A stretch of DNA of 64,000 bases from Bauldia litoralis (GTDB lineage: Bacteria; Pseudomonadota; Alphaproteobacteria; Rhizobiales; Kaistiaceae). Location: assembly GCA_945882315.1 (NCBI GenBank), contig CAMCWB010000001.1, forward strand, positions 1,560 through 65,559. The letters are read 5' to 3'. The notes beneath the pieces were generated by a model, which had not been told where the DNA came from, searched no databases, and was given only the letters and a program-made list of their open reading frames with translations. Shown here one piece after another: positions 11,432 to 56,055 of this stretch. The position numbers and the translations under genes are program-made. How positions within the stretch are numbered: position 1 is the stretch's first letter; every line of letters begins with the position of its first letter.

Positions 11432-11443
11432 GGCGATTCTCCA

Positions 11444-11479: not shown

Positions 11480-11787
11480 AATTTAAACGCGGGGCGGACG
11501 CGGGGTGGTTTGAATGAGGCCGTCGTTGCTAAGGCCGGCTATGCGTTTTGGCAGTCTTTCAACCTCGGGTCGCCGCCGTTCCTCGCCGCGCAGCGGGCTT
11601 GAGTTGCGCATACGGGCCGATGCGCGGGGAAGAGATAATGTTCAGTATTGCAGGCTTTACCTTCTTTAGTGTTCATGAATGCGAACGTTAATTGCAAAGA
11701 GCGGTCGAGGCTGAGGTTTTTGGGCTGCTTGCCTTATGTTCATAATTGTGTACGCTAAAAGACTTATTGACCAGCAATGTGAACGCT

Positions 11788-13841: not shown

Positions 13842-13912
13842 ATTGGCTGGAACGTTGAGTCTTCGAATGGACGCGCGAGCGGAAGGCCGTCGACCGGCGC
13901 GGTGCCGGTCCG

Positions 13913-14938: not shown

Positions 14939-15010
14939 GAAGATCGCTTAGCCGCCTTCATCCTATTGTCAAAATGCTAGTGTTAGCGTCGCCGTCCCCG
15001 GGATGAGACG

Positions 15011-18121: not shown

Positions 18122-18573
18122 GCGTCATGATCCGCCAGGCTGCGGAAAGCGACCTCCCGGCGATCCTCAGGCTCTACGCGCAACCCGAGATCGACGACGG
18201 CGACATCCTGCCGGTCGAGGATGCGGCCAAGATCTTCCGCCGCTTCGCCGACTATCCCGATTATCACCTCTTCGTCGCCGAGCAGGATGGCGAGGTCGTC
18301 GGCTCCTATGCGCTCCTGATCATGGACAATATCGGCCATCTCGGCGCCCGCTCGGCGGTGGTGGAAGACGTCGTCGTCGATCCGAAGCGCCAGGGCGCCG
18401 GCATCGGCAAGACCATGATGCGCGCCGCGCTGACCGAGGCGGCCAAGAAGGGCTGCTACAAGCTGGCGCTCTCGTCGAACCAGAAGCGCGATCGGGCGCA
18501 TGCCTTCTACGAGTCGCTGGGCTTCGACCGCCACGGCTACAGTTTCCTCGTCACGCCGGAGGAGAAGGCATGA
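18118..18573 (+). CDS. GNAT-family N-acetyltransferase (PhnO-like position)
   Basis: Inside ORF 17962..18573. ATG 18118 overlaps the phnJ stop (ATGA). Acetyl-CoA motif is RQGAGIGKTMM. Confidence 0.75.
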   Translation: MSVMIRQAAESDLPAILRLYAQPEIDDGDILPVEDAAKIFRRFADYPDYHLFVAEQDGEVVGSYALLIMDNIGHLGARSAVVEDVVVDPKRQGAGIGKTMMRAALTEAAKKGCYKLALSSNQKRDRAHAFYESLGFDRHGYSFLVTPEEKA

Positions 18574-19343
18574 GCGCGCCGCTTCTCACCGCCGAAGGCC
18601 TGACCAGGCTCTATGGCACGCGGATCGGCTGCGCCGCCGTCGATCTGCAGATATGGCCGGGCGAAGTGCTGGCGATCGTCGGCGAATCCGGCTCCGGCAA
18701 GACGACGCTGCTCAACTGCCTCTCGGCGCGTCTGCAGCCGAGCGCCGGTCGCATCCTCTATGCGATGCGCGACGGCGTCACGCGCGAGCTCTTCGCGATG
18801 AGCGAGGCCGAGCGCCGCTTCCTCATGCGCACCGATTGGGGTTTCGTCCACCAGAACCCGGCCGACGGGCTGCGCATGTCGGTCTCGGCCGGCGCCAATG
18901 TCGGCGAGCGGCTGATGGCGGTCGGCGAGCGCCATTACGGCCGCATCCGCCAGACGGCCGAAGGCTGGCTGGAGCGCGTCGAGATCGACATCGACCGCAT
19001 CGACGACGATCCGCGCAGTTTTTCCGGCGGCATGCGCCAGCGCCTCCAGATCGCTCGCAACCTCGTCACCGCGCCCCGCCTCGTCTTCATGGACGAGCCG
19101 ACCGGCGGCCTCGACGTCTCGGTGCAGGCAAGGCTTCTCGACCTTCTCCGCGGCCTCGTCGCCGATCTCGGCATGGCGGCGGTCATCGTCACGCATGATC
19201 TGGCCGTTGCCCGGCTCCTCTCCGACCGGATGATGGTGATGAAATCCGGCGAGGTCATCGAGGAGGGCCTCACCGACCGCGTCCTCGACGATCCGCGCGA
19301 GCCCTATACCCAGCTTCTCGTCTCCTCGATCCTGCAGGTATAA
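18570..19343 (+). CDS. phnK: Phosphonate C-P lyase system ATPase PhnK
   Basis: Inside ORF 18105..19343; the real start is ATG 18570 (ATGA overlap with the GNAT stop). Walker A is GESGSGKTT and the ABC signature is FSGGMRQR. Confidence 0.9.
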   Translation: MSAPLLTAEGLTRLYGTRIGCAAVDLQIWPGEVLAIVGESGSGKTTLLNCLSARLQPSAGRILYAMRDGVTRELFAMSEAERRFLMRTDWGFVHQNPADGLRMSVSAGANVGERLMAVGERHYGRIRQTAEGWLERVEIDIDRIDDDPRSFSGGMRQRLQIARNLVTAPRLVFMDEPTGGLDVSVQARLLDLLRGLVADLGMAAVIVTHDLAVARLLSDRMMVMKSGEVIEEGLTDRVLDDPREPYTQLLVSSILQV

Positions 19344-19348
19344 GCGCC

Positions 19349-20050
19349 ATGCCGCCGAGACTTGAATTTCGCGACGTCGCCAAGAGCTTCACCATGCATC
19401 TGCGCGGCGGCCTACGCCTGCCGGTCGTCGCCAATGTCAGTTTCCACGTGGCGCCGGGCGAATGCGTCGTCCTCGGAGGCCCTTCCGGCGCCGGCAAGAG
19501 TTCGATCCTAAAAATGGTCTTCGGCAATTACGCCGTCGACAGCGGCGCCGTCCTCGTCGCCAACGACAATGCCCTGATCGACATCGCCACCGCATCGCCG
19601 CGCGAGATCCTCGCTGCGCGCCGCACCACGATCGGCTATGTCAGCCAGTTCCTGCGTGTCGTGCCGCGCGTCGCCGCGGTCGACGTCGTCGCCGAGCCGC
19701 TGATCGCCGCCGGCTGCGAACGCGGCGAAGCACTGGAGCGAGCCAGGACCTTTCTCCGCCGCCTGAACCTGCCGGAGCGGCTCTGGGACCTGCCGCCGGC
19801 GACCTTTTCGGGCGGCGAGCAGCAGCGCGTCAACGTCGCCCGCGGCTTCATCACCGGCCGGCCGCTGCTTCTCCTCGACGAACCGACCGCCTCCCTCGAT
19901 GCCGAGAACCGCGCGGTCGTCGTCGAACTGGTCGGCGAGGCGAAGGCCGCCGGCACCAGCTTCCTCGGCATTTTTCATGACGAGCAGGTCCGCGAGGCGG
20001 TGGCCGACCGGATCATCGACGTCACCGGCTTTGCGACCGCCGCCCCATGA
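19349..20050 (+). CDS. phnL: Phosphonate C-P lyase system ATPase PhnL
   Basis: ORF 19349..20050. Walker A is GPSGAGKSS and the signature is FSGGEQQR. Confidence 0.9.
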   Translation: MPPRLEFRDVAKSFTMHLRGGLRLPVVANVSFHVAPGECVVLGGPSGAGKSSILKMVFGNYAVDSGAVLVANDNALIDIATASPREILAARRTTIGYVSQFLRVVPRVAAVDVVAEPLIAAGCERGEALERARTFLRRLNLPERLWDLPPATFSGGEQQRVNVARGFITGRPLLLLDEPTASLDAENRAVVVELVGEAKAAGTSFLGIFHDEQVREAVADRIIDVTGFATAAP

Positions 20051-20679
20051 CCCGCCTCGGACCGCAACCGCTCGTCTCGCCGAGCGCGCTGGTCGAGGAA
20101 AGCACCCTCGGCGCCTATGTCGAAATCGGCGAGCGCACCCGCATCAGCCATTCGCGCTTCGGCGACTACAGCTACATGATGGAGGACGGCCAGGTCCTCT
20201 TCTCGACGGTCGGCAAATTCTGCTCGATCGCCTCGAATGTCCGCATCAACCCGCCCAACCATCCGATGTGGCGGGCAAGCCAGCATCATTTCACCTATCG
20301 CGCCGCCGATTATTTCGAGGGCGCCGATTTCGACGAGAGCGTCTTCGCCTGGCGCCGCGAGCATGCGGTGACGATCGGCAACGATGTCTGGATCGGCCAC
20401 GGCGCCACCATCATGGCCGGCAATTCGGTCGGCGACGGCGCCGTCGTCGCGGCCGGTGCGGTGGTCACCAAGCCGGTCGCCGCCTATGCGATCGTCGCCG
20501 GCGTGCCTGCCCGCAAGGTCAAGGATCGTTTCGCCCCGCAAATCGCCGAAAGACTGGCCCGACTTGCCTGGTGGAACTGGCCGCATGACGAAATCCACAG
20601 GGCACTCGCCGATTTCCGGCAAATGGCGATCGCGGACTTTCTCGAAAAATACGAGCGCGAAGAACGCGCTGGCGCTTAG
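20047..20679 (+). CDS. Hexapeptide-repeat (LbH) transferase associated with phosphonate operons
   Basis: ORF 20047..20679 with ATGA overlap to phnL. Hexapeptide repeats: IGNDVWIGHGATIMAGNSVGDGAVVAAGAVV. XAT-like fold family. Confidence 0.8.
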   Translation: MTRLGPQPLVSPSALVEESTLGAYVEIGERTRISHSRFGDYSYMMEDGQVLFSTVGKFCSIASNVRINPPNHPMWRASQHHFTYRAADYFEGADFDESVFAWRREHAVTIGNDVWIGHGATIMAGNSVGDGAVVAAGAVVTKPVAAYAIVAGVPARKVKDRFAPQIAERLARLAWWNWPHDEIHRALADFRQMAIADFLEKYEREERAGA

Positions 20680-20803
20680 GCGGCGTAGCACGCGGCAGGC
20701 TTTATCCTCTGTCGCGCGACTGTCATCAAACTGAAGACGAAACGACAGACTGCCCGGCTAGTCATGGTTATCGAACCTTGGTCCAGCCAACGGGTGATGC
20801 TGC

Positions 20804-21646
20804 GTGCCTGCTTTATCGGTGACGAAACTTTCCAAAAGCTTCGGCCAGAAGAAGGCCCTGCGCGAGATCGATCTCACCGTCGAGCGCGGTGAGATGGTGG
20901 CGCTGATCGGCGCCTCCGGCTCGGGCAAGTCGACGCTCATCCGTCATATCGCCGGCCTCGAGCGCGGCGACCGCAGCTCGGACGGCATCGATATCTTCGG
21001 CCAGTGCATGCAGAAGGCTGGCAAGCTCACAAGCGACGCGCGCATGATCCGTCGCGATGTCGGCGTGATCTTCCAGCAGTTCAATCTCGTCAACCGCCTG
21101 CCGCTCCTCACTAATGTCCTGATCGGCTGCCTCGGCCGCGTGCCGGGCTGGCGCGGCACGCTCGGCTTCTTCAGCCGCGTCGAGCAGTTGCGGGCCATGC
21201 AGGCGATCGACCGGGTCGGCATCGCATCAGCGGCCCGCCAGCGCGCCTCGACGCTGTCGGGCGGCCAGCAGCAGCGCGCCGCGATTGCCCGTGCGCTTGT
21301 CCAGGGCGCCAAGCTTCTCCTCGCCGACGAGCCGATCGCTTCGCTCGATCCGGCCTCCGCCAAGCGCGTCATGGAGGCGCTGTCCGACATCAACCGCCGC
21401 GACGGGATCACCATCGTGGTGTCGCTGCATCAGGTCGAATATGCCCGCCGCTACTGCCCGCGCACGATCGCGCTCCGCGACGGCACGATCGCCTATGACG
21501 GCCCGTCGACGGCGCTGACCAACGACTTCCTGCGTTCGCTCTACGGCGAAGCTTCGGAGGAACTGATCCTCCCCGATGCAACGCTGCATGAAGAACCCGC
21601 CCTGCGTTCCTGGTCCGTCGGCCGGCCTGCATTGGCTGCGGTCTGA
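20804..21646 (+). CDS. phnC: Phosphonate ABC transporter ATP-binding protein PhnC
   Basis: ORF 20804..21646 (GTG start). Walker A is GASGSGKST and the signature is LSGGQQQR. Confidence 0.9.
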
Positions 21647-21684
21647 TTGCTCCGCCTTACCCGATCCCAACAAGGAGACTAGCG

Positions 21685-22683
21685 ATGAACATGCTGCTGA
21701 AAGGCCTCGCCGCGACGGCGATCGCCGCGACGCTCGCGACGCCGGTGCTCGCCGAGACGACCGAAATCAATTTCGGCATCATCTCGACCGAGTCCCAGTC
21801 GAACCTGAAAACCATCTGGGACCCCTTCCTCGCCGACATGGGCAAGAAGACCGGCCTCAAGATCAACGCCTTCTTCGCCTCGGATTATGCCGGCGTCATC
21901 GAAGGCATGCGCTTCGGCAAGGTGCAGATCGCCTGGGTCGGCAACAAGGCCGGCATGGAAGCCGTCGACCGCGCCAATGCGGAAGTCTTCGCGCAGTCGG
22001 TCGCCGTCGGCGGCGAGCCCGGCTATTGGGGCCTGCTGCTGGCTCCGGCCGATAGCGCCCTGACCTCGGCCGAAGACGTCCTGAAATGCGACAAGTCGCT
22101 GAATTTCGGCCTCGGCGACCCGAACTCGACCTCGGGCTATCTCGTCCCGATGACCTTCCTCTTTGCCCAGAACGGCAAGGATCCGAAGGAGTGCTTCAAG
22201 ACGGTAACCAACGCCAATCACGAGACCAATGCGATGGCGGTCGTCAACAAGCATGTCGATGTCGCGACCAACAACACCGAGAACATGATGCGGCTCACCA
22301 AGACCAACCCGGAAGCCGCCGCCAAGATCAAAGTGATCTGGAAGTCGCCGCTGATCCCGTCCGACCCGATCGTCTGGAACAAGGAACTCGACCAGCCGAC
22401 CAAGGACAAGCTCGTCGCCTTCTTCATGGGCTATGGCCGCCAGGGCACGCCCGAGCAGGTCGAAGCCGAGCGCGGCGTCCTGAGCGGCCTGCAGTGGGCC
22501 CCCTTCCGCCCCTCGTCGGATGCGCAGCTCTATCCGATCCGCATCATGGAAATCACCAAGGCCATGTTCACGCTCAAGGGCGACGACAAGATTTCGGCCG
22601 AGGAGAAGACCGCCAAGCTGAAGGAGCTCGAGGCCGAGAAGGCCAAGTATGACGCGCTCCTCGTCAAGGTCCCGCAGGCCTAA
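21685..22683 (+). CDS. phnD: Phosphonate ABC transporter periplasmic binding protein PhnD
   Basis: ORF 21685..22683 with AAGGAG upstream. Signal peptide is MNMLLKGLAATAIAATLATPVLA. Also has the FGIISTESQ motif. Confidence 0.9.
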   Translation: MNMLLKGLAATAIAATLATPVLAETTEINFGIISTESQSNLKTIWDPFLADMGKKTGLKINAFFASDYAGVIEGMRFGKVQIAWVGNKAGMEAVDRANAEVFAQSVAVGGEPGYWGLLLAPADSALTSAEDVLKCDKSLNFGLGDPNSTSGYLVPMTFLFAQNGKDPKECFKTVTNANHETNAMAVVNKHVDVATNNTENMMRLTKTNPEAAAKIKVIWKSPLIPSDPIVWNKELDQPTKDKLVAFFMGYGRQGTPEQVEAERGVLSGLQWAPFRPSSDAQLYPIRIMEITKAMFTLKGDDKISAEEKTAKLKELEAEKAKYDALLVKVPQA

Positions 22684-22701
22684 GCCGCAGCAGCAGAAAG
22701 A

Positions 22702-23553
22702 GTGGCGGCGTCCATCCAGGCGCCGCCGCCTCCTTGCACCATGCATCAGACAGCCAACCCGCCGGCGCCAAGCGTCGCCATTCCTCCGCGCGATTGGAGG
22801 CAGTCTGCCTTCCGCTATCTCGTCTGGGGCGTCCTGGTGGCGGTGCTCGCCTGGGGCTTCGGGCCGGCGGAGATTTTTCGCGCCGTCAATCTCATCACCG
22901 ACGCCGACAATATGGCGGAATATGCCAGCGGCTTCCTGAGCCCCAATTTCCGCGACCTCGACTATTACCTCTCCGAGATCGTCCTGACGGTTCAGATCGC
23001 TGCCTGGGGCACCGCCCTTGCCGTGATCGCCGCCGTCCCCTTCGGCATATTGAGCTCGAACAATATCGCACCCTGGTGGGTCTACCAGCCGGTGCGCCGC
23101 CTGATGGATGCCTTCCGCGCCATCAACGAGCTGGTCTTCGCCGTGCTCTTCGTCGTTGCCGTCGGTCTCGGGCCGTTCGCCGGCGTCATGGCGCTGTTCA
23201 TCCACACGACCGGCATCCTCGCCAAGCTGTTTTCCGAGGCGGTCGAGGCGATCGATCCCCGTCCGGTCGAGGGAATCCGGGCCACCGGCGCCTCCAAGTT
23301 GCAGGAAGTCGTCTATGGGGTTATCCCCCAGGTCCTGCCGCTGTGGATCTCGTTTTCGCTGTACCGGTTCGAATCGAATGTACGCTCCGCGACGGTGCTG
23401 GGGCTTGTCGGCGCCGGCGGGATCGGGCAGGTGCTCTTTGAATCGATCCGCGGCTTCTACTATGCGGAAACCGCGGCTCTCCTGATCGTCATCGTCCTGA
23501 CCGTGACGGTTGTCGATCTCATATCGCAGCAATTGCGGAAATTGGTCATCTAG
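22702..23553 (+). CDS. phnE: Phosphonate ABC transporter permease PhnE
   Basis: ORF 22702..23553. Start is uncertain (GTG 22702 or ATG 22741). Multi-TM protein with an EAA-like loop ([17 protein letters not shown]). Confidence 0.85.
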
Positions 23554-23557
23554 CATC

Positions 23558-24271
23558 ATGCGCTTCGCTATTTTCTTTACGCCGCCACCGGAGCATCCGC
23601 TGTCGAAAGCGGCAGCGCTTTGGCTCGGCCGCGATGCCTTTTCGGGTGAGGAATTCGCCCAGATCGGCGGCGAGGGCTTCACCGACAGGGATATCCGCGA
23701 GCTGACGGCGGCGCCGCGGCGCTACGGTTTCCACGCCACCTTGCACGCGCCGTTCCTGTTGTCCGAAGGGGCAACCGGCGAAGACGTCGACGCGGCGTTC
23801 CGAACGGCATGCCGCGAGCTGCAACCGGTGCCGCTCTGGCGCCTCGGCGTCGAGCGGATCGGTTCGTTTTTCGCCCTGACGCCGACCGCATCGTCCTCCG
23901 AGCCGGTGAGCGCGCTCGCCGCCGATCTCGTCCGCCGCTTCGACCGACTGCGCGCCCCGCCGAGCGCCGCGGAGATCGAACGGCGGAACCCGGAGAAGCT
24001 TTCGCCGGGCCAGCGCCGCAATCTGGAACGCTGGGGCTATCCCTATGTGTTCGACGATTTCCGCTTCCACATGACCTTGACCGGACCGGTGCCGGAGGAG
24101 AGCCGCCCCGCCATGCAGCGCCTCCTCGAAACGCGCTTCCGCCCGCTCATCGAGCAGCCGGTCGCCATCGATGCTCTTTCCCTTTTCGTCGAGGCGACAC
24201 CGCCGGGCGATTTCCTCGTGAAAAGGCGGTCGCCTCTGGCGACCGTTCCCCAGCCGGTAGACGCCGCATGA
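23558..24271 (+). CDS. DUF1045 putative phosphonate metabolism protein (2H phosphoesterase-like)
   Basis: Inside ORF 23510..24271, starting at ATG 23558 (MRFAIFFTPP). Contains HATL and HMTL, a pair of H-x-T/S-x motifs. Confidence 0.75.
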   Translation: MRFAIFFTPPPEHPLSKAAALWLGRDAFSGEEFAQIGGEGFTDRDIRELTAAPRRYGFHATLHAPFLLSEGATGEDVDAAFRTACRELQPVPLWRLGVERIGSFFALTPTASSSEPVSALAADLVRRFDRLRAPPSAAEIERRNPEKLSPGQRRNLERWGYPYVFDDFRFHMTLTGPVPEESRPAMQRLLETRFRPLIEQPVAIDALSLFVEATPPGDFLVKRRSPLATVPQPVDAA

Positions 24272-25413
24272 CCGAAACCGTTTTCCGCAACGCCCGCATC
24301 GTCCAGCCCGATCGGATCGTCGAGGGCAATGTCGTGGTGCGCGACGGCGTCATCGACGAGATCGACGAGACCATCGTCCAGATGTCGGGCCCCGGCGTCG
24401 ACCTCGAAGGCGACTGGCTCATTCCCGGCCTGGTCGAGCTCCACACCGATCATCTCGAAGGCCATTACTCGCCGCGCCCGAAGGTTCGCTGGAATCCGGT
24501 CGCAGCGGTGCAGGCGCATGACGCCCAGATCGCCGCCTCGGGCATCACCACGGTCTTCGATGCGCTGCGCATCGGCATGGACGAGGACACCAGGCTCGTC
24601 GCCAACGACATGCAGGTGCTCGGCGCCGCCATCGCCGAGAGCCGGGCCGCCGGCCGCCTGCGCGCCGACCATTACATCCACCTCCGCTGCGAGGTCAGCG
24701 CCAGCGATGCGATCGAGAGCTTCGAGCATTTCCTCGATGAGCCGCTGGTCCGGCTGGCGTCGCTGATGGACCACACGCCCGGCCAGCGCCAGTTCACCTC
24801 GCTTGACGCCTACAAGACCTATTATCTCGGCAAGAGCGGCATGACCGAAGCCGAGCTGCTGGTCGTGATGGAAAAGCGCATCGCGCATGCCGAGATCTAT
24901 TCGGCAAAGCAGCGCCAGTTGCTGGCCGCGAAGTGCCGCGAGCGCGGCATCGTGCTCGCCAGCCACGATGATGCGACCATCGAGCATGTCGCCGAGGCGG
25001 CCGGGATCGGCGTGCTGGTCGCCGAATTCCCGACGACGATGGAAGCGGCGCGGGCCTCGCGGGACGCCGGCATGAAAATCCTGATGGGCGCCCCCAACAT
25101 CGTCCGCGGCGGCTCCCATTCCGGCAATGTCGCCGCCAGGAGTCTCGTCGAGGCAGGCCTGCTCGACGTTCTTTCCTCCGATTACCTGCCCTTCAGCCTG
25201 CTGCACGCGACCTTCAGGATCGCCAATGAGGTCGAGGGCATCGACCTGCCGCAGGCGCTGGCCTTCGTCTCGCTCAATCCGGCGACGGCCGCCGGTATGG
25301 ACGATCGCGGCGCCATCCTCCCCGGCCGCCGCGCCGATCTCGTCCAGGTCAGGACCGACGGCGACGTGCCGCTGGTGCGCACGGTCTGGCGTCAGGGCCT
25401 GCGCGTCGTTTAG
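24268..25413 (+). CDS. phnM: Alpha-D-ribose 1-methylphosphonate 5-triphosphate diphosphatase PhnM
   Basis: Inside ORF 23809..25413; the real start is ATG 24268 (ATGA overlap with the upstream stop). Amidohydrolase motif is VELHTDHLE. Confidence 0.9.
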   Translation: MTETVFRNARIVQPDRIVEGNVVVRDGVIDEIDETIVQMSGPGVDLEGDWLIPGLVELHTDHLEGHYSPRPKVRWNPVAAVQAHDAQIAASGITTVFDALRIGMDEDTRLVANDMQVLGAAIAESRAAGRLRADHYIHLRCEVSASDAIESFEHFLDEPLVRLASLMDHTPGQRQFTSLDAYKTYYLGKSGMTEAELLVVMEKRIAHAEIYSAKQRQLLAAKCRERGIVLASHDDATIEHVAEAAGIGVLVAEFPTTMEAARASRDAGMKILMGAPNIVRGGSHSGNVAARSLVEAGLLDVLSSDYLPFSLLHATFRIANEVEGIDLPQALAFVSLNPATAAGMDDRGAILPGRRADLVQVRTDGDVPLVRTVWRQGLRVV

Positions 25414-25424
25414 GGTTCCGGACC

Positions 25425-25997
25425 GTGACATCCGAAGCGCCGGACAGGAAATCGGGAATGCTGGTTCTGGTCATCGGTCCGAGCGGTGTCGGCAAGGACA
25501 CGCTCATCGCCTATTGCCGCGCGCGTCTTGCCGGCAAGGCGACGATCGTCTTTCCGCGCCGAACCGTCACGCGTCCGGCCGGTGACGAGACGGAAGATCA
25601 CGACGCGGTTTCGGAGGAAGAGTTCCGGCAGCGGGATGCTGCCGGCGCTTTTGCGCTTCGCTGGCAGGCGCATGGCCTGTCCTATGGCGTTCCGGTGCAG
25701 ATCGATGACGATCTCGCGGCCGGGCGGACGGTGGTCGCCAATGTCTCGCGATCGATCATCGATGAGACGCGAGCGAAATATCCGAATCTCAGGATCGTGT
25801 GCGTGACCGCATCCCCCGAAATCCTGGCGCGCCGCCTTCAGGGCAGGGGCCGCGAAGGCGAGGCAGAGATCGCCAGGCGGCTGGAGCGGGCCAGGTCCGT
25901 TGCCGTCGAGGGACCGGATGTTGTCATTCTCGACAATTCCGGCGCGCCGGAAGAGGCGGGCGGCAGGCTTCTCGAGCTTGTCATGCGCGCCGGTTGA
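25425..25997 (+). CDS. phnN: Ribose 1,5-bisphosphate phosphokinase PhnN
   Basis: ORF 25425..25997. P-loop is GPSGVGKDT. Start is GTG 25425 or ATG 25458. Confidence 0.85.
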   Translation: MTSEAPDRKSGMLVLVIGPSGVGKDTLIAYCRARLAGKATIVFPRRTVTRPAGDETEDHDAVSEEEFRQRDAAGAFALRWQAHGLSYGVPVQIDDDLAAGRTVVANVSRSIIDETRAKYPNLRIVCVTASPEILARRLQGRGREGEAEIARRLERARSVAVEGPDVVILDNSGAPEEAGGRLLELVMRAG

Positions 25998-26104
25998 GCG
26001 CCGCCATCATTCCAAATTGCCTCAAATCCGCTGCCACAAGAAGGCGAAAGGATAAAAGGGTTCCTGATAGAGCGGGCTGTCCTTTCCTGATGTGAGGAGT
26101 GCCC

Positions 26105-34189: not shown

Positions 34190-36130
34190 CTAGCTGCCCT
34201 GGGCAAGCTCGGTGATGTTACGCACCGTGACCCGGCGGTTCTGCTGTTCCGCCGCTTCTGTCGGGACCTTCAGATATTGCTCGCCGTAGCCCTGCGTGAC
34301 CAGGTTCTCCGGCGGAACGTTGAAGTTGCTCGACAGCGCCACCGCGATTGCCTCGGCGCGCCGGTCGGACAGAACGAGATTGTCGTTGTCCGAGCCAACG
34401 GCGTCGGTGTGACCCTCGATCAGGAAGATCTGGTCGGGCGACTGAGTGATCGCCTGTTCCATGGCCTGGCCGACGGCCGTCAGCGCATCGAACTGCGAGG
34501 GTGAGATCGCCGCGCTGCCGAAGTCGAAGGTGATCGTATTGAGATCGACCCTCGGCATCTTGTCGCGCAACCGCTCACTGGTCCGAATCTCGTCGAGCGC
34601 ATACGGCCTTTCGATCGCTTCGACCGGCGGCGCCATCAGGGCCGCATAGATCTGGTCGCGATCCGCAGTGCTCGTCTCGACGATGTAGCGGTCCTGCGGA
34701 ATGCCGATACGCAGCGGCGGCAACTCGTCCTCGAAGCGCGTGTAGGTGGGTCGCCGACCCTCGCGATAAAATTCGCGATTGTCGATGAGGATCACCTGAC
34801 GGCCGCGTGGGTCGACGCGGGTCCGGGTCATGATCTCACCGTAGCGGTCACGCACGGTGATGATCTGCGAGCTATCGCCGCGGCTCACCGTCGTACGCTG
34901 ATAGCCGCCGGGGAAATGCTCCACGTCGACGTCGCGCGCACGGCTGAGGAACCGATCCGACTCATAGGCGCTGTCCTGGCGAATGATGACCTGATCGCCG
35001 AAGCGGATGATGAAGCGTCCGCCCAGATCGAGAACGAGGTCCGATTCAGGTGGCCGTTCGCGTTCCCAGCGACCATCTCCGTCGCGACCTGGGCCGTCGC
35101 CACGACCCTGGCCGTCACCGCGACCCTGGCCGTCTCCTCGGCCTGGGCCGTCGTCGCCGCGGCCGGGACCGTCATTCCCGCTACCGCCCTGACCTTCACC
35201 CTGACCTTGGCCCTGACCTTGACCTTGACCATTCCCGTCACGGCCGCGCGCCTGCTCGTCGCGGAGCTTGGCGCGGAGCGTTCGGACATTGTCGACGGCC
35301 TACTGGTCGCCCTGGGCTTCGAGCTGGGATTCCGTCGCGGATTCTTCCGCCGGCGGCGCAGCAGTCTGCTGTCCGTCGGGCGTGGAAGGCTGGCCACCCT
35401 GATCGCCGCCTGGCGGCGGCAGGACCGGGGCTGATCCGTCGCCCGGTGCTTGCGGCGGCAATACCAGAGTCGGCGGCGCGTCGGCGGGCGGCGGCGCCAG
35501 CGTCGGCGGTGTCGACGGCTCCTGAACCGGCGGAATCGGCGTCGGCTCAAGAACCGGAGGCGTCTCCTGCTGCAACACCGGCGGCGCCGGTGTCTCCACC
35601 GGCGGCGGCTCGACCGTTGGCGGCACGAGAACCGGCGGCTCTACCGGGGGCACGTCCAGAACCGGGGGCGGCTCTGGGATCTGCAATTGCGGCGCCGGCG
35701 GCGTCTCAATCTGCGGCACCTCTATTTGTGGCGGAGCTTCGGGCGGAGCCGTCATCTCCGGCGGTGGCGCCGGCGGCTCGGGCGGCGGCGGTGTAGCCTC
35801 CGGCGGCGGGGCAGGCGGCTCCGGCGGGGGTGGAGGCGGGGGCGGCGGCTCCGGGGGAGGCGCAGGCGGTTCCGGCGGCGGCGGGGGCGGTGGCTCCGGC
35901 GGGGGTGGCGGCGGCGGTTCCTCCTCCTTCTTTTTCTCGGGCGGCGGCGCCTCTCCCGGCGGCAGAAGAAGGAGTTCCTCCGGCGTCTGCGCAAGCTGCA
36001 AGAGCGCCGGTGCGACGTCTGGCGCCCCTGAAGCGTCAGTCGCGCCTTGGTTCTGCAACGCCATGGCTGGCGCGGCGAACATGAAAGGCATGGCGACACT
36101 GGTGAAGAGGGCGAGGCGTTTGGATTTCAT
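34190..36130 (-). pseudogene. OmpA-family protein (signal peptide, Pro-rich and Gly/RGD-rich regions, C-terminal OmpA domain) interrupted by an in-frame TAG
   Basis: ORFs 35300..36160 and 34190..34924 are in the same frame. Reading through the TAG at 35300-35302 gives ...LEAQGDQ-stop-AVDNVRTLRAK...GQGRGDGQGRGD...VEHFPGGYQ.... The OmpA_C motif is IEGHTDAVGSDNDNLVLSDRRA. Start is MKSKRL at 36130. Confidence 0.75.
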
Positions 36131-36169
36131 CCCTGATGTTCCTGTCCTGAAAATGGGCAATCGGCTGCA

Positions 36170-38178: not shown

Positions 38179-39060
38179 TTAGGGGCGCGCGGCTCTGCTC
38201 GCGCACGTAATGCGTCCGAGTTCTTCCCATCTGGCATGCCAGCGCATGCCTTCCTGCGTCGGCGGCTGCGGCGTCTGGATTTCGAGCCAGCGCACCGGCC
38301 GGCCCTCGACGGGAAAGAACGCATGCCGCGAGCCCACCGCCGTCCAGGCGAAGTCGCCGGTCTTCAGCGTGTAGGCGCGGCCGTCGAAGACGATGTCGAC
38401 GTCGCCCTCGAGGATCAGATAGGCCTCCTCGAAGGGATGGTCGTGATGATTGCAGATGCCGCCCTTGGCGAATTCGACGGTGAACATATTGAGATGCACC
38501 GCGCCGAAATCGCGGTCGACGAAATAGCGGATAGAGAATCCCTGCAGATCGCCATGCATATGCGCGCCTGGCGGCATCGAGCCGGCCGCATAGTGGCCGA
38601 GGAGTTTGCGGCGCGGATCCCCGGCCTTCGGCGCCGGCGTCAGCCTCGCCCAGTCGAGCGTCTCGATGAAGAACACATCCTGCCAGCCCCCGGCCGGCTT
38701 CGGCTGCGGCGTCGTCACCTCGACGTAGCGCGCCGGCGCCTCTGACGCATTCCGGTAGGCATGCGCGACGCCGGTCGAGACGATGCCGTAATCGTCGCGG
38801 CCGAGCGTGAAGCGCGTACCGTCGCGCTCCAGCTCCAGCACCCCGTCGAGCATGTAGATCGTCGTCTCATAGGCGCGGATCGAGCGGTCGATCGCGCCGC
38901 CGGGCTGCAGCGTGTTCAGCGCGTAGCCGGCATGGACGGAGCCGGCGTCGCGGTCGAGGAGCGTGACCCGCGACAGGCCGCGGCAATGTCCATCGAGGCT
39001 GCCGAGGCCGCCCTCTCGCATGTCCCCGGCGGAAACTACGAGATGGATCGGTGCCGGCAT
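38179..39060 (-). CDS. Bicupin (two cupin domains) protein
   Basis: ORF 38179..39060 with AGGAG 6 nt upstream. Two cupin-like cores: G.AHAYRN... and CNHHDHPFEEAYLILEGD...SRHAF. It starts 9 nt after the stop of the upstream PEPCK-hydrolase ORF. Confidence 0.75.
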   Translation of the reverse strand: MPAPIHLVVSAGDMREGGLGSLDGHCRGLSRVTLLDRDAGSVHAGYALNTLQPGGAIDRSIRAYETTIYMLDGVLELERDGTRFTLGRDDYGIVSTGVAHAYRNASEAPARYVEVTTPQPKPAGGWQDVFFIETLDWARLTPAPKAGDPRRKLLGHYAAGSMPPGAHMHGDLQGFSIRYFVDRDFGAVHLNMFTVEFAKGGICNHHDHPFEEAYLILEGDVDIVFDGRAYTLKTGDFAWTAVGSRHAFFPVEGRPVRWLEIQTPQPPTQEGMRWHARWEELGRITCASRAARP

Positions 39061-39069
39061 CCTGTGCTC

Positions 39070-41850
39070 CTACGCAGGCGCGCCGAAGGCGGCCTGGGTT
39101 CCGGCGCTTCGCCGAACATGCGGCGCGGCGAGGCTCTTCGGCGTGGCGAGGAAGCGGAGAAGCGTCTGGTTGACGAAATCCGCCGCCTCATACTGCGCCC
39201 AATGGCCGGTATTCTCGGCGATGACGCATTCCGACGACGGGTCGACGCCCTTGAGCAGTTCGCGCATGACCGGCAACCGGTCCTTGGCGACCGCGTCGCA
39301 GGCGCCCCAGATGCCGTCGGCCGGCACGCGGAGCTCGCGGAGGATCGCCGGCACGTCGGTCTTCTGCGCCAGCGCGCGGCTGTCGATGCGGGCACGGGCG
39401 GTGTTCTCCGCCTGCATGAAGACGGCGAGATCGTCGATCTTGTTTGCGTCATGCACCATCAGCGCCGCGAGGTTGCTGCGGTGGACGGAGAGCAGTTCCT
39501 TGCGGTCGGTGATGTGCCGCCACTTGGCGAGTTGCACGACTTCCGGCCGCGCAATGCCATAGCCGCCCGAGCCGATGAGGATCAGGCGTTCGATGCGCTC
39601 CGGTGCGATCGCCGCCATCTGGATGGCGATGACGCCGCCGAAGGAGAAGCCGGCGATCCGCGCCTGCGAGTAGGGGCCGAGGATCGCGTCGATGCCATGC
39701 CACAGCAGTTCGGCGATGCGCTGCGTCGAGAGATCGCCCTCGGGCTTGTCCGAGTCGCCGAAGGCCGGCATGTCGGGCGCATAGATCGTGTTGGTCGCGG
39801 CCAGGATCTCGATGTTGCGGATCCAGTGGGTCCAGGAGCCGAAGCCGCCATGCAGGAGCATGAGCGCCGGGCCGGAACCCCAGCTCCGCCAGACGGTCTT
39901 GGCGCCGGCATGTGTCGTGGTGATGCGCCGCGCCGAGGCTTCGAGCCGGGCGAGCGTTGCCGGCCGCGGCTCGGCGCCGTTGGCTGTGTTCTTCTGACTG
40001 CCGCCCTCGTCGTCGCCGGATTCCTCGGCTTCGTCGAGACGGCGGACAAGGTCGGCATGCTCGACCCAGAGTTCTTTCGGGAGCTTGTTGCCGAGCGCCT
40101 CATAGCCCTTGCCGATCGCGTCCGCTTCCGCCTTCCAGGAGGGGATATCGACGGACAGGATGAGGTCGAGCGTCGCGTCGGTGACGCCGAGGCCCTTGGT
40201 ATCGAGGGCCGCCTTGGTCGGCACCATGCCGATCGGCGTTTCGACCGCATCGGTCGTGCCTTCGAGCCGCTCGCAGATCCATTTGAGGACGCGGCTGTTC
40301 TCGGCATAGCCCGGCCAGGCGAACTTGCCGGCGGAATCCTTGCGGAACCAGTTGACCAGATAGAAGCGCGGCAGCTTGGCCGGATCCGGCGCGACGCGGC
40401 CGGTCTTGATCCAATGCGCCAGGTAGTCGCCGACATGGTAGCCGAGGAAAGGCAGCATCGCGAACGGGTCGCGGCGCAGCTCGCCGACCGTCGTGTCGGC
40501 GGCGGCGGTGCCTTCCGACGCCATGTTCGAGGCGAGGAAGATGCCGTGCTGCCAGGAAAAGGCTTCGGTTACGAGCGGTACGACGCCGGCCCGGCGGCCG
40601 CCGAACAGGAAGGCCGAGATCGGCACGCCGCTCGGGTCGTTCCATTCCGGCGCGATGCTCGGGCACTGGTCGGCCGGCACGGTGAAGCGCGCATTCGGAT
40701 GCGCCGCCGGGTCCTTTGACGCTGGCGTCCAGTCGTTTCCGATCCAGTCGGTCAGCCGGGCGGGTGGCGTATCGGTCATGCCCTCCCACCAGACGTCGCC
40801 GTCGGGCGTCGTCGCGACATTGGTGTAGATGCAATTGGCGTCGAGCGCGCCCATCGCGTTGGCATTGGTCTTGATGTTGGTGCCCGGCGCCACGCCGAAC
40901 AGGCCGGCTTCCGGATTGATCGCGTAAAGCTGGCCGTCCTTGCCGAAATGCATCCAGGCGATGTCGTCACCGATCGTCTCGGCCTTCCAGCCCGGCACGC
41001 TCGGCTTGATCATGGCGAGGTTGGTCTTGCCGCAGGCGCTGGGGAAGGCGGCGGCGATGTAGCGGACCTGGCCCTTCGGCGAGGTCAGCTTGAGGATCAG
41101 CATGTGCTCGGCGAGCCAGCCGCCGTCGCGCGCCATCACCGAAGCGATGCGCAGCGCATAGCATTTCTTGCCAAGGAGGGCGTTGCCGCCATAGCCGGAG
41201 CCGTAGGACCAGATCTCGCGGGTCTCGGGGTAATGGACGATGTATTTCGTCTCGTTGCAGGGCCACGGTACGTCGCTGTCGCCGGGCGCCAGTGGCGCCC
41301 CGACCGTGTGGACGCCGGGGACGAAAGTGCCATCGTCGCCGATCGCGGCAAGCGCTTCACTGCCCATACGAGTCATGATGCGCATCGACGCCACGACATA
41401 GGGGCTGTCGGTGAGTTCGACACCGAGCGCGCTGAAGGGCGAGCCGATCGTGCCCATCGAATAGGGGACCACATACATGGTGCGGCCGCGCATCGAGCCC
41501 CTGAACAGCGGGTCGAGCGTGGCGCGCATTTCGGCGGACTCGACCCAGTTATTGGTCGGGCCGGCGCCTTCCTTGGTCTTGGAGCAGATGAAGGTGCGGC
41601 TTTCGACGCGGGCGACGTCCTTCGGATCGGAGCGTGCCGCGAAGGAGTTCGGCCGCTTCTCGGGATGGAGCGGCATCAGGGTGCCGGCGTCGACCATGAG
41701 CCTGGTCAGCCGGTTCCATTCCTTTTCCGAGCCGTCGCACCATTCGATGCTGTCCGGCTGCGTCAGCGCCGCGATTTCCTCGACCCAGGCCAGCAGGCCT
41801 TTATGCTTGGTCGGAACGGTATCTCGCGTAGGAATGCTACCCACCTGCAT
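39070..41850 (-). CDS. pckG: GTP-type phosphoenolpyruvate carboxykinase fused to a C-terminal alpha/beta-hydrolase domain (about 926 aa)
   Basis: ORF 39070..41931; I prefer ATG 41850 after GGGGAG. PEPCK(GTP) P-loop is [12 protein letters not shown]. An acidic linker ([14 protein letters not shown]) follows. The hydrolase has HGGFGSW, nucleophile elbow GFSFGG and a C-terminal GHWAQYE. No stop and no plausible internal start separates the two parts. Confidence 0.85.
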
Positions 41851-42161
41851 TAACTCCCCGACGGAAAGTGGCTGGGGAGTTCGGAGCGTTCCCCTTCTGC
41901 TGCCAGTCTTCCTTTTTGGCCTACGAGACACGCAAACTCAACCCCGTGTCGGCAAAGACGCCTAAACACGGCGCCGCAGGGCCGGACTGCCGTGCCTGTG
42001 GCAAATCGGCCGTTTACCGGCCTCGGCGAATCCATTAAGGTGTTGTTTCGGATTTGTCCCTTATCCCGTAACTCTTCCCCTCGGCGCGCGCCCGGCGCGA
42101 CAGGCTGTGAGCATCTCATGGAGAAGAGGGGAGTGGGCAGGCTCCCGGCCGGCCTTTGAGC

Positions 42162-42195: not shown

Positions 42196-43674
42196 GTGAC
42201 AAGCGCCGCCCCCGCATCGCCGCCGGTCAAGGCCAAGTTCCGGACGATTGCGCCGGCGATTGCCTTACCGATGTTCCTCGGCATGGTCGGCGAGACCATT
42301 GTCGCGACGGCGCTGCCGGTCATCGCAGCCTCGCTCGGCAATATCGAGCAGATCACCTGGGTGGTCGTCGCCTATCTGATTGCCATGGCGGTCACCGCCC
42401 CGGTCTATGGTCGCCTCGGCGACGCCTTCGGCCGCCGCATGATGATGGTCGTGGCGCTGTCGATCGCGCTCGTCGGCAGCATCCTCTGCGCCCTGTCGAC
42501 CTCGGTCGAGATGCTAATTGCCGCCCGGGTCTTCCAGGGATTGGGCGGCGGCGGTCTCGTCAGCCTGTCCCAGGCCCTCGTCTCCCAGTCGGTGCAGCCG
42601 CGCGACCGCATGCGTTTCCACGGCTATATCGCCGCCTTCGGTTTCAGCGCCAGCGCCATGGGGCCGGTGCTCGGCGGCATCCTCACCGACAATTTCGGCT
42701 GGCAGTCGGTCTTCCTCTTCAACCTGCCGCCGGCGATCCTCGGCATCCTGCTCGTCTTCCGGGTGCCGCCGCGCTCGACGCCCTTCGAGCCGTTCCGTTT
42801 CGACTTCCCCGGCCTCGTCCTCTTCACGATGTTCGTCACCTCGCTCCTGATCCTGGTCGAGGAAATCCGCCGGCCGGCCGAGATGCGCTCCGTCTTCGCT
42901 ATGGGGCTCGGCGTGACCATCGTGGTTTCCCTGCTCCTCCTGATCAGGCGCGAGTTCCGCGCCACGAGCCCCCTCTTTCCGCCGGTCCTGATCCGCAACC
43001 CCAACATCTGGCGCAGCTACGCCATGGCCATCTGCCATGGCGGCTATTTCGTCGCGCTCCTCGCCATGATCCCGATCTATCTGAGCGTCGTCTACGGCCT
43101 CTCGGCGTCCCAGATCGGCTTGCTCATGCTGCCGATGACGGCCGGCATCGGCTTCGGCACCTATGCCACCGGCCAGATCGCCAGCCGCACCGGCCAGGCG
43201 GCGATCTTCCCATCGATCGGCCTCGTCGTGGTCGCGGTGATGGTCGCCGGCCTCGGCTTCCTGGGGCAACTCCCGATGTGGATCCTGTCGCCCTATCTCG
43301 GCCTCATCTCGCTCGCCACGGGCACCGTGATGGCCGTGGTGCAGGCGACCGTCCAGTCCGAATCGGGCGGCCCCCTTCTCGGCACGGCGACGAGCGGCGT
43401 GTCGCTCTCCCGCGCGCTCGGTGCGGCGATCGGCACGGCGCTCGCCGGCACGCTGCTGTTTGCCACGCTGGCCGCCAACGGCATGGAGATCTCGACCGAC
43501 CTCCAGTCGATCCTCCAGGGCAGCAGCGAGGGATTGGCGAGCATGGGGGCCGTGGTCGAAGCCGAGATCCGCGCCAATGTCGCCTTCGCTTTCCGCGGCG
43601 TCTTCTTCCTGATCGCGAGCTACGCCGCTATCAGTTGCGTGCTTGCCTGGACCCTGCCGCGCCGCACGCTCTAA
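42196..43674 (+). CDS. MFS transporter (DHA2/EmrB-like, about 14 TM segments)
   Basis: ORF 42196..43674 (non-ATG start). Motif GRLGDAFGRR and many TM segments. Confidence 0.85.
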   Translation: MTSAAPASPPVKAKFRTIAPAIALPMFLGMVGETIVATALPVIAASLGNIEQITWVVVAYLIAMAVTAPVYGRLGDAFGRRMMMVVALSIALVGSILCALSTSVEMLIAARVFQGLGGGGLVSLSQALVSQSVQPRDRMRFHGYIAAFGFSASAMGPVLGGILTDNFGWQSVFLFNLPPAILGILLVFRVPPRSTPFEPFRFDFPGLVLFTMFVTSLLILVEEIRRPAEMRSVFAMGLGVTIVVSLLLLIRREFRATSPLFPPVLIRNPNIWRSYAMAICHGGYFVALLAMIPIYLSVVYGLSASQIGLLMLPMTAGIGFGTYATGQIASRTGQAAIFPSIGLVVVAVMVAGLGFLGQLPMWILSPYLGLISLATGTVMAVVQATVQSESGGPLLGTATSGVSLSRALGAAIGTALAGTLLFATLAANGMEISTDLQSILQGSSEGLASMGAVVEAEIRANVAFAFRGVFFLIASYAAISCVLAWTLPRRTL

Positions 43675-54252: not shown

Positions 54253-55638
54253 TTAATGTGCTGATTTGGAAGCCGGACGCTTCTTGGACTTCGGCGGTGC
54301 CTTCGCAACAGCCTTTGCCACGATCGGCGCCAGGTCGGCGGGCGCCTTCGGAACCGCGTGGCCATTACCGTTGCCGTTCTTGGCGGCGGCCATGCGGGCG
54401 ATGTTGCGCAGGCTGTGCGTCGCGATGAAATCGGCGATGCGCGGCGCGATCTCGGCGCGGTAGCGCGAGCCGTTGAAGACGCCGTAATGGCCGACCTTGG
54501 TCTGGAAATGGTGGGCGCGCTTGTCGGCCGGGATGTTGACGCAGATGCGATGCGCGGCCTCCGTCTGCCCGACCCCGGAGATGTCGTCATTCTCGCCTTC
54601 GATGGTGAGGAGCGCGACATTGCGGATCGCCGCCGGATCGACCGTCTCGCCGCGATGCATCATTTCGCCCTTGGGCAGCGCGTGGCGGATGAAGACGGTG
54701 TCGACGGTCTGCAGGTAGAATTCGGCGGAGAGGTCCATGACGGCGAGATATTCGTCGTAGAACTCGCGATGCTTCTCGGCGTCCTCGCCGTCGCCCTCGA
54801 CGAGGTGGCGGTAGAAATCCTGGTGGGCCTGCAGGTGCCGGTCGAGATTCATGCTGAGGAAGCCGGAGATCTGCAGGAAGCCCGGATAGACCTCGCGCAT
54901 GAAGCCGGGATGCGGGAAGGGCACCTTCATGATGACGTTCTGGCGGAACCAGTCGAGGTCGTGGCTGTTGACCAGCGTGTTGACCGCGGTCGGGTTGACG
55001 CGCGTGTCGATCGGGCCGCCCATCAGCACCATCGAGGCCGGCAGGTTGTTGTCGCCGCGCGCTTCCATGATCGCCGTCGCGGCCAGCACCGGCACCGAGG
55101 GCTGGCATACCGCCATCATGTGCGCGCCGGGTCCGAGCATGTGCAGCATCGAGACGAGATAGTCGATGTAGCTGTCGAGGTCGAAGCCGCCCTCGGTCAT
55201 CGGCACCATACGCGCATCGATCCAGTCGGTGATGTAGACGTCGTGGCGGGGCAGCATCGCCTCGACCGTGCCGCGCAGCAGCGTCGCGTAGTGGCCGGAC
55301 ATCGGCGCGACGATCAGGAGCTTCTCCTGGTTGAGCGGCTTGTGGCTGCCGCTCTTCTCGAAATGGATGAGCCGGCAGAAAGGTCGCTCCCAGACGATCC
55401 GCTCGGTGACCGGCAGCCTTTCGCCGCCGACCAGCGTCGTGCCGAAGCCGAATTCCGGCTTGCCGTAGCGCCGCGTGGTGCGCTCGAAGAGTTCCGCCGC
55501 CGCCGCCATGTTGCGCCCGAAGGGCGTGTGGGCGAACGGATTCAACGGGTTCTGGAAATAGAGCCGGGTCGCGTCGGCAGCCGCCCGGAGCGGGCTCAGC
55601 GCCGCATGGTTCAGTTCATAGAGCTGGTAGTAGGACAA
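54253..55638 (-). CDS. phaZ: Intracellular polyhydroxyalkanoate depolymerase
   Basis: ORF 54253..55875. The conserved N-terminus SYYQLYELNHAALSPLR suggests a TTG start at 55638 after AAAGGGG. Start uncertain. Confidence 0.85.
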   Translation of the reverse strand: MSYYQLYELNHAALSPLRAAADATRLYFQNPLNPFAHTPFGRNMAAAAELFERTTRRYGKPEFGFGTTLVGGERLPVTERIVWERPFCRLIHFEKSGSHKPLNQEKLLIVAPMSGHYATLLRGTVEAMLPRHDVYITDWIDARMVPMTEGGFDLDSYIDYLVSMLHMLGPGAHMMAVCQPSVPVLAATAIMEARGDNNLPASMVLMGGPIDTRVNPTAVNTLVNSHDLDWFRQNVIMKVPFPHPGFMREVYPGFLQISGFLSMNLDRHLQAHQDFYRHLVEGDGEDAEKHREFYDEYLAVMDLSAEFYLQTVDTVFIRHALPKGEMMHRGETVDPAAIRNVALLTIEGENDDISGVGQTEAAHRICVNIPADKRAHHFQTKVGHYGVFNGSRYRAEIAPRIADFIATHSLRNIARMAAAKNGNGNGHAVPKAPADLAPIVAKAVAKAPPKSKKRPASKSAH

Positions 55639-55755
55639 GCCCCGAACCCCTTTGTTGTTCTTGGCGGACCGGGGGCCGCCCGGCGTTATTTTGCGTTGCA
55701 GCAAAGATAGGGCCGACAAAGCCGTTAAGGCAAGGGGCGGCTCAGGGATTGGTGA

Positions 55756-56055
55756 GTCCCTCTCCCACAGGAGACCTTTGCACAACCTCGCAAGGCGCGG
55801 GACAGACCGGATTCGAAGAGAGAACGGATCGGAATCAACCCAAGAACATCCGCCTCGCTCTGTTAGGTTATGCAAAGGTCTCCACAGGGAGAGGGCCGCC
55901 GCCCTTAAAAGCGCAGCGCATTAGGGCGGCGGGGTGAGGGGCTGAAGCACTGGTTTGTGGCGATGCCCACCTGCCCTCGGCTGCGTACGCCCTCACCCTT
56001 CTCGCCTAACTCGCTCCGCTCCTAAGGCTCAAAGCCCTCTCCCCACGGGAGAGGG
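55756..56055. repeat. Cluster of GC-rich palindromic repeats (CCCTCTCCC...GGGAGAGGG type) in the phaZ / ABC-permease intergenic region
   Basis: Inverted 27-mers lie at 55756-55782 and 55871-55897, sharing TGCAAAGGTCTCC and GGGAGAGGG. A 9-bp-stem hairpin CCCTCTCCC-CAC-GGGAGAGGG lies at 56035-56055. Confidence 0.7.

Follow-up and report, generated by a model that had tools for sequence, protein, structure and literature searches.

Results

The fusion gene and its domains

The 64,000 nucleotides analysed here (the window) are positions 1,560 to 65,559 of the forward strand of contig CAMCWB010000001.1 from Bauldia litoralis. On its minus strand the window carries a gene in which a GTP-dependent phosphoenolpyruvate carboxykinase (PEPCK) continues, within one uninterrupted frame, into an alpha/beta-hydrolase. 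A bicupin gene follows downstream, and a transporter gene of the major facilitator superfamily (MFS) lies divergently upstream. The positions of these features are collected in Table 1.

Table 1. Features at the PEPCK-hydrolase locus, in window positions or in residues of the fusion protein (dN/dS, ratio of nonsynonymous to synonymous substitution rates; pLDDT, predicted local distance difference test score).
Feature	Position	Strand	Basis
Fusion coding sequence, 926 codons + stop, PEPCK(GTP)-linker-alpha/beta-hydrolase	39070..41850	minus	Open reading frame, Pfam, NCBIfam, 12 fused homologues
GTP-dependent PEPCK domain, residues ~9-612	40015..41826	minus	NCBIfam PRK04210, Foldseek, invariant motifs, dN/dS 0.17
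P-loop FPSACGKTN, K275	41026-41028 (K275)	minus	Alignment
Flexible acidic/Gly-rich linker, residues ~613-630	39961..40014	minus	pLDDT, identity, dN/dS, length variation
Alpha/beta-hydrolase domain, residues ~631-905	39136..39960	minus	Pfam, invariant motifs, pLDDT above 90, dN/dS
Hydrolase HGG oxyanion motif	residues 667-669	minus	Invariant in alignment
Hydrolase nucleophile Ser736 (GFSFGG)	39643-39645	minus	Alignment
Hydrolase acid Asp852	39295-39297	minus	Alignment
Hydrolase His883 (GHWAQYE)	39202-39204	minus	Alignment
Poorly conserved C-terminal tail, residues 906-926	39073..39135	minus	pLDDT below 50, identity 28%, dN/dS
Bicupin gene, 293 aa, two Cupin_2 domains	38179..39060	minus	Pfam, conserved site, AlphaFold, dN/dS
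Upstream region, candidate promoter/leader	41851..41960	minus	Motif conservation
Clade-specific motif GGGTTGAGTTTGCGTGTCTCGT	41923-41944	minus	Conserved in otherwise unalignable intergenic DNA
MFS transporter, 492 aa, DHA2-like, divergent	42196..43674	plus	Pfam MFS_1

The open reading frame (ORF) spans 39070 to 41931 and encodes 953 aa; with the ATG at 41850 as the likely start, the protein has 926 aa. A GGGGAG Shine-Dalgarno sequence is found 5 nt upstream of this ATG, and the start is common to all homologues. Start-codon calls vary between sources. The window's own database entry (P0001) has 924 aa, and the gene call for the closest fused homologue (P0002, positions 2219-5182 of locus L092) uses an upstream alternative start and has 987 aa. 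In P0002 the conserved start MQEGS... is located 61 codons downstream of the called start and matches the window ATG at 41850.

The single frame holds complete PEPCK_N and PEPCK_GTP domains, followed by Abhydrolase_1/Abhydrolase_6, according to Pfam. The junction has no stop codon in any frame, and the acidic stretch of the linker is positioned at about 40000-40035. No in-frame ATG, GTG or TTG occurs between residues 560 and 663, and the hydrolase domain therefore cannot be translated separately. The original prediction, which was made from the DNA sequence alone, had described a frame with PEPCK, acidic linker and hydrolase and with neither a stop codon nor a plausible ribosome-binding site or start between the two enzymes, and all its coordinates and motifs proved correct.

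In an AlphaFold2 model of the whole protein both domains are confident, the hydrolase mostly with pLDDT above 90. Linker residues 614-625 have pLDDT below 50 and are predicted to be disordered, and the predicted template modelling score (pTM) of the whole protein is 0.61. In this model a flexible tether joins two folded domains, and no interface between them is predicted with confidence. In the alignment, the linker corresponds to the C-terminal tail of PEPCK together with the N-terminal leader of the hydrolase in the split forms described below.

Recurrence of the fusion

Among 5.8 billion proteins searched, 12 further protein clusters of 913-987 aa have the same four Pfam domains. They are 72-84% identical to the query over 97-100% of its length and originate from JGI, ENA, NCBI and Logan assemblies. 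On the DNA, an uninterrupted fused frame was seen at seven loci (L001, L002, L003, L092, L095, L097 and L098); the relative at L092 is 84% identical and shares the gene order of the window. The fusion is genuine and recurrent: whether the architecture of the full protein recurs, a question raised with the original prediction, is answered by at least 12 fused clusters and these seven loci. In the databases the fused homologues are annotated simply as 'phosphoenolpyruvate carboxykinase (GTP)'.

No fused copy was found in the plasmid collection. One candidate, at 4992-6815 of the Azospirillum argentinense plasmid p1 (NZ_CP032322.1; L173), was rejected. There the tblastn alignment reached query residue 703 only because it ran past a stop codon; the ORF itself has 607 aa and is followed by an unrelated gene.

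Selection on the parts of the protein

Mean pairwise identity among the 13 fused proteins is 81% for PEPCK, 69% for the hydrolase, 32% for the linker and 28% for the C-terminal tail. The dN/dS ratio was computed for the window versus L092 and versus L001. For PEPCK the value was 0.17, for the linker, which also varies in length, 0.5-0.7, and for the C-terminal tail about 0.8-1.1. The catalytic residues of both domains are invariant among the fused proteins. Conservation of the C-terminal domain had been set as a test of the fusion by the original prediction, and it is seen both in the retained catalytic residues and in a hydrolase dN/dS of 0.24-0.27. Both catalytic domains are under purifying selection, and the linker drifts.

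Split relatives of the fusion

When the hydrolase domain alone was used as query, stand-alone proteins at 59-66% identity were found. On their contigs, the genes for those hydrolases come immediately after those for the closest unfused PEPCKs (76-79% identical). In L004/L005, L008 and L096 the stop codon of PEPCK and the start codon of the hydrolase share 4 bp (GTGA or ATGA), and in L006/L007/L093 the two genes are separated by 2 nt. Both arrangements imply translational coupling of the split genes.

By neighbour-joining, the PEPCK and hydrolase parts gave congruent trees, and thus the two halves have been passed on as a pair ever since the clade arose. The four split pairs are placed in three sub-clades among the fused proteins, which means that the clade has changed between the fused and split states several times. 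All PEPCK-linked hydrolases fall into one distinct monophyletic group on a long branch. On these alignments and trees, the conserved unit is the PEPCK and hydrolase pair, repeatedly fused and split, and selection seems to favour coupled expression over the covalent bond. The original prediction had named homologues that are always separate adjacent genes as evidence against a fusion. Half of this holds, as the nearest relatives do include split pairs, but these are interleaved with fused forms.

The PEPCK domain

Residues 9-612, approximately, are a canonical bacterial GTP-PEPCK. The NCBIfam equivalog PRK04210, PEPCK (GTP), was matched with 967 bits against a cut-off of 504, over positions 12-611 of the 612 in the model. 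A Foldseek search gave the Mycobacterium tuberculosis PEPCK (4wou, 4wie) at 59-61% identity and a template modelling (TM) score of 0.93-0.94 (normalised by target length); the enzymes of Polaromonas, Corynebacterium and rat came next. The P-loop, the ligand motifs for metal and substrate and the guanine pocket NWFRK...WPG..EN are present and invariant in 17 aligned sequences; their roles are assumed to be those in the rat and M. tuberculosis enzymes. A low-confidence segment at residues 446-470 is presumably the mobile active-site lid.

Related GTP-PEPCKs of about 70% identity are unfused in other Alphaproteobacteria and in Actinobacteria. Rhizobia typically use the ATP-type enzyme PckA; no ATP-type pckA was found among the annotated ORFs of the 64-kb window. 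A 729-aa PEPCK from a Phenylobacterium sp. metagenome-assembled genome (MAG; HEX5380567.1, P0014) is without the hydrolase fusion and contains an internal tandem duplication of about 110 residues in the N-terminal/core region (columns 213-325 of alignment A1), which is probably an assembly artefact.

The hydrolase domain and its family

The hydrolase domain matches Pfam Abhydrolase_1 with 62 bits against a cut-off of 25.8. Ser736 in GFSFGG, Asp852, His883 and the HGG motif are invariant in 25 fused, split and stand-alone members as well as in the 13 fused proteins. Family members down to about 38% identity have in common HGG.GSWTHW.R, the GFSFG elbow, HR.N, Q..N, the acid Asp and GHW..E, and SWTHW.RN is also found in the window domain. 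With its Ser-Asp-His triad intact, the domain is predicted to be catalytically competent. Close to the catalytic centre numerous Arg, His, Asn and Gln residues are conserved, which hints at a small anionic substrate.

When 1.84 billion representatives were searched exhaustively with a profile, the family proved to comprise at least 732 clusters (50% identity) at E<=1e-30. The best 150 matches are all stand-alone proteins of 212-387 aa; no other fusion partner occurs among them, and the two longest are without any extra Pfam domain. A PEPCK gene is absent from all 151 wider-family loci, with DNA of up to 10 kb on each side; these loci are from Stellaceae, Ramlibacter, Hoeflea, Xanthobacteraceae, Cupriavidus, Pigmentiphaga and others. 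No consistent operon partner was found within 6 kb on either side at 80 loci, or among two genes on each side at 151 loci. The neighbourhoods show only lineage-specific housekeeping synteny, including Hsp20, Lon, DnaJ/K, GlnD and Bug-family binding proteins.

Two observations were made on the wider family itself. Five of its loci, including L087 (9091-9984), have tandem paralogues of the stand-alone hydrolase. The hydrolase gene of one lineage within the Alphaproteobacteria (Stellaceae and related MAGs) adjoins those for Hsp20, Lon, DnaJ/DnaK and GlnD, which is probably lineage synteny rather than functional linkage.

A role as oxaloacetate tautomerase was considered for the hydrolase and found to be unsupported. 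That activity belongs to FAHD proteins, a family of the fumarylacetoacetate hydrolase (FAH) fold, not to alpha/beta-hydrolases (PMC10825186).

The bicupin gene downstream

The bicupin gene begins with an ATG at 39060, 9 nt beyond the stop codon of the fusion gene (TAG, 39072-39070), and an AGGAG sequence overlaps the stop; the 9-nt spacing and the AGGAG had been named in the original prediction. The bicupin gene is probably co-transcribed with the fusion gene. His206, His208, Glu212 and His246 of the C-terminal barrel are conserved across 48 homologues, and the N-terminal barrel of the window bicupin is without the usual His pair. With a dN/dS of 0.22-0.30 the gene is under purifying selection, and the AlphaFold model of its product has a pLDDT of 93.

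No curated family in NCBIfam, or specific family in Pfam, was matched at threshold. In a sequence search of solved structures the bicupin matched only quercetinase YxaG (E 3e-6). Two-barrel folds like that of the window bicupin are found in YxaG, OxdC and YlbA/ureidoglycine aminohydrolase (TM 0.6-0.7), at an identity of only 13-18%. The nearest named bicupin is from a Xanthobacteraceae MAG.

The gene lies downstream in 8 of approximately 13 related loci (the window, L001, L003, L006/7/93, L092, L097, L100 and L130) and is not downstream in L002, L004/5, L008, L095 and L096. Homologues at 56-64% identity occur in unrelated contexts in other genomes. Because of this patchy presence and the unrelated contexts elsewhere, the bicupin is an optional neighbour and not a core part of the unit.

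The upstream element

The intergenic regions between the MFS and PEPCK genes are largely unalignable, except for the block GGGTTGAnnTTGnnnnnnnCGT about 75-95 nt before the start and a conserved A-rich stretch after it. The element GGGTTGAnnTTGn7CGT(..AAAAG) was located at L001 9908-9929, L002 2718-2739, L003 3834-3855, L004 8051-8072, L006 4111-4132, L008 500-521, L092 2310-2331, L095 8013-8034 and L098 447-468. All 11 close-clade loci with upstream DNA have it once, at the same position, whereas 162 other loci are without it; 0.02 matches would be expected by chance in the window. It probably serves the PEPCK-hydrolase operon as promoter or operator.

Between this element and the start codon, in the region 41851-41905, there is a GGGGA...CTCCCC segment, and its CTCCCC can pair with the GGGGAG Shine-Dalgarno sequence. 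This leader segment could sequester the Shine-Dalgarno sequence, with weak structural support (consensus energy -5 kcal/mol). No Rfam family matched in the window.

The gene neighbourhood and other parts of the window

Orthologues of the MFS transporter with 60-81% identity are found in the same divergent position in L001-L006, L008, L092, L095 and L098, and an MFS neighbour is present in every related locus with upstream sequence. PolA, PreT/PreA, DoxX and an epimerase are encoded further out and are likewise syntenic among the related loci; a BA14K gene is also among the neighbours. This gene and the Xanthobacteraceae match of the bicupin loosely suggest an alphaproteobacterium, probably of the Hyphomicrobiales. 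No ring-cleavage, aromatic or other catabolic genes were found near the fusion gene. The locus is part of the core chromosomal synteny of one lineage and not a catabolic island. Synteny with PolA, PreT/PreA and DoxX fits a housekeeping PEPCK better than a dedicated pathway.

Some further regions of the window were noted. An intracellular polyhydroxybutyrate (PHB) depolymerase is encoded at 54253-55875 on the minus strand (PHB_depo_C, 329 bits), about 12 kb from the fusion gene, with no evidence of a link between the two. At 35300-36160, also on the minus strand, there is a 286-aa ORF with a signal-like N-terminus, after which nearly the whole product is Pro-rich repeats (PPPPEPPAPPPE...). The GC content peaks locally at 71-76% in this ORF, and Pfam gave no match for it; it may encode a secreted or cell-envelope protein, and the ORFs overlapping it in other frames are probably spurious. 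From about 13900 to 26000 on the plus strand, a run of ORFs with high GC content at third codon positions (GC3) resembles, as read from the translations, a carbon-phosphorus (C-P) lyase (phn) operon for the use of phosphonates, with ATP-binding cassette (ABC) transporter genes. A 534-aa amidohydrolase at 23809-25413 within this phn-like run was checked with Pfam. Positions 1-13000 contain few confident ORFs, with a lower GC3 than the remainder of the window, and may be a degraded or mobile region.

Discussion

Interpretation of the fusion

The gene encodes a genuine fusion of PEPCK and hydrolase, and we think it rather probable that its product is a bifunctional polypeptide in which an ordinary PEPCK is tethered to the hydrolase, and that the pair is kept co-expressed and co-localised. 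For the hydrolase, a reaction at the oxaloacetate/phosphoenolpyruvate (PEP)/pyruvate node is the most attractive reading, if a doubtful one. The PEPCK part would catalyse oxaloacetate + GTP <-> PEP + CO2 + GDP and is most likely the ordinary gluconeogenic enzyme of the lineage. An unstructured linker of about 20-35 residues would tether it to the hydrolase. The fusion evolved from a translationally coupled pair. The PEPCK stop codon, overlapping the start of the hydrolase gene (NTGA), was probably lost through a small indel, and the lineage has switched between the fused and split states several times. Selection would keep the co-expression and co-localisation of both activities, not the peptide bond, and any benefit from the hydrolase would depend on its equimolar, co-localised expression with PEPCK.

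Our best guess for the hydrolase is that it cleaves a small anionic compound, such as an acyl ester, a thioester or an enol/keto-acid derivative, and thereby feeds or protects PEPCK; substrates of this class would fit the Arg, His, Asn and Gln residues that are conserved about its active site. The hydrolase could release oxaloacetate from an acylated, esterified or enol-type derivative, or it could remove a side-product or inhibitor of PEPCK. A further step would be that the orphan family processes an oxaloacetate-, pyruvate- or PEP-related metabolite and has been tethered to PEPCK to act in sequence with it, which we regard as doubtful.

Several points speak against a functional partnership. 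The repeated fission shows the covalent link to be dispensable. All examples are from one narrow lineage, and co-inheritance could be partly phylogenetic inertia. The model of the whole protein, with its pTM of 0.61 and no fixed inter-domain interface predicted, does not indicate substrate channelling. The neighbourhoods of the wider family have no link to central carbon metabolism, and the hydrolase falls below every curated NCBIfam or Pfam-specific family threshold. Finally, both catalytic activities and their coupling are predictions.

Alternative explanations

The main rival is that the pair is a neutral by-product: a hydrolase gene landed downstream of pck, the two proteins have unrelated jobs and share a promoter, and a single indel suffices for fusion or fission. 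We consider this a real possibility, if an unlikely one. It is consistent with the repeated interconversion of fused and split states within a single lineage, with the almost neutral evolution of the linker and the C-terminal tail and with the lack of a predicted interface. Outside this clade, none of the family loci examined shows a link to PEPCK or any metabolic context, and the active-site residues are identical in PEPCK-linked and stand-alone members, which suggests unchanged chemistry. However, the pair is adjacent, coupled or fused in every clade member examined, despite a synonymous divergence (dS) of about 0.5-1.0 and differing downstream genes. The congruent trees of the two halves and the distinct, long-branched and monophyletic position of the PEPCK-linked hydrolases also argue against chance association, and persisting fusions of unrelated enzymes under purifying selection are uncommon.

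The original prediction had proposed a specialised catabolic module, in which a cupin dioxygenase or decarboxylase and a C-C hydrolase pass a substrate to or from oxaloacetate or PEP. The closely spaced and probably co-transcribed bicupin gene, its presence in 8 of about 13 related loci, the conserved 3-His/1-Glu-type metal site in the C-terminal barrel and the divergent transporter gene are in line with such a module, as is the fact that the nearest solved relatives of the hydrolase are C-C hydrolases acting on meta-cleavage products (MCP). It is nevertheless improbable. The substrate residues of the MCP hydrolases are missing, with a GFSFGG elbow instead of G-N-S-x-G-G and no aligned counterpart of the lid Arg. 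The bicupin is absent downstream in five of the approximately 13 loci, its homologues turn up in unrelated contexts, and its likeness to known folds is generic. In addition, no catabolic genes are nearby, and the locus has core synteny with PolA.

That a sequencing or assembly artefact, a lost stop or frameshift, merged two genes in this window only is very unlikely given the recurrence in independent assemblies: a single-base error could mimic a fusion, since the closest split relatives differ from the fused forms by small junction changes, but the same in-frame architecture is present in at least 12 independently assembled homologues and at seven loci on DNA, L092 with its 84% identity and same gene order is fused as well, and the linker in the window has no stop in any frame and no start for a separate hydrolase.

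Significance

A PEPCK and a hydrolase kept together by selection would be a new partnership in central metabolism. PEPCK is among the most thoroughly studied enzymes in this part of metabolism, and to our knowledge no natural fusion or obligate second-enzyme partnership of PEPCK has been described; within the searchable literature no published description of a PEPCK-hydrolase fusion was found. The finding amounts to a new domain architecture and partnership for a well-known enzyme, confined to a small alphaproteobacterial lineage, and is not categorically new.

A fused or coupled pair with both halves under purifying selection is a classic signal of functional linkage. Hundreds of lineages of Alpha- and Betaproteobacteria have a member of the hydrolase family, and if the linkage is true, the fusion would be a 'Rosetta stone' by which a function can be assigned to the whole family. 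It would give the first functional lead for this widespread orphan family, and a so far unnoticed reaction around oxaloacetate/PEP would be revealed. Should the two enzymes prove to be unconnected, the locus would still illustrate well how genes can fuse and split repeatedly where stop and start codons overlap.

Comparison with known systems

The MCP C-C hydrolases HsaD, BphD and MhpC are the nearest solved structures to the hydrolase domain, with E of about 1e-30 to 1e-22 (about 1e-30 for HsaD and BphD); the best match, at about 4e-30, extends over the whole fold. They share with it the Ser-Asp-His triad and the Trp after the catalytic His (GHW). They differ at the nucleophile elbow, where GNSxGG (GNSLGG in the aligned HsaD) is GFSFGG in the window hydrolase, the substrate-binding Asn being replaced by Phe. 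The lid Arg of the MCP enzymes (BphD Arg190, HsaD Arg192) falls in an insert state of the hidden Markov model (HMM) alignment and has no counterpart in the hydrolase family, with the lid alignment itself uncertain. The oxyanion loop of the window hydrolase is three residues shorter, and its scores are far below the equivalog cut-offs (57 versus 400 bits for HsaD, 48 versus 462 for BphD). An aromatic or steroid catabolic context is also missing at the window locus. Given the Phe for Asn exchange, the unmatched lid Arg and the scores below cut-off, we do not class the domain as an MCP C-C hydrolase.

The top curated model for the family is the AcoC-type alpha/beta-fold dihydrolipoyl acetyltransferase of acetoin dehydrogenase (PRK14875), which is matched with 78-95 bits over its whole alpha/beta-fold part. 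The window hydrolase scores 94.6 bits against a cut-off of 307, over model positions 86-370, and has neither a lipoyl domain nor acetoin dehydrogenase genes nearby. The layout of AcoC resembles that of the fusion protein, with a partner domain at the N-terminus, then a linker and an alpha/beta-fold domain.

In its first 600 residues or so the protein compares with the bacterial GTP-PEPCKs, such as Pck of M. tuberculosis and of Corynebacterium glutamicum, with the same full-length fold, P-loop, oxaloacetate/metal motifs and guanine motifs. Known PEPCKs are single-enzyme proteins of about 600-630 aa, whereas the window protein adds a C-terminal alpha/beta-hydrolase of 300 aa, and in the sister taxa of the window the hydrolase gene is translationally coupled to PEPCK instead of fused.

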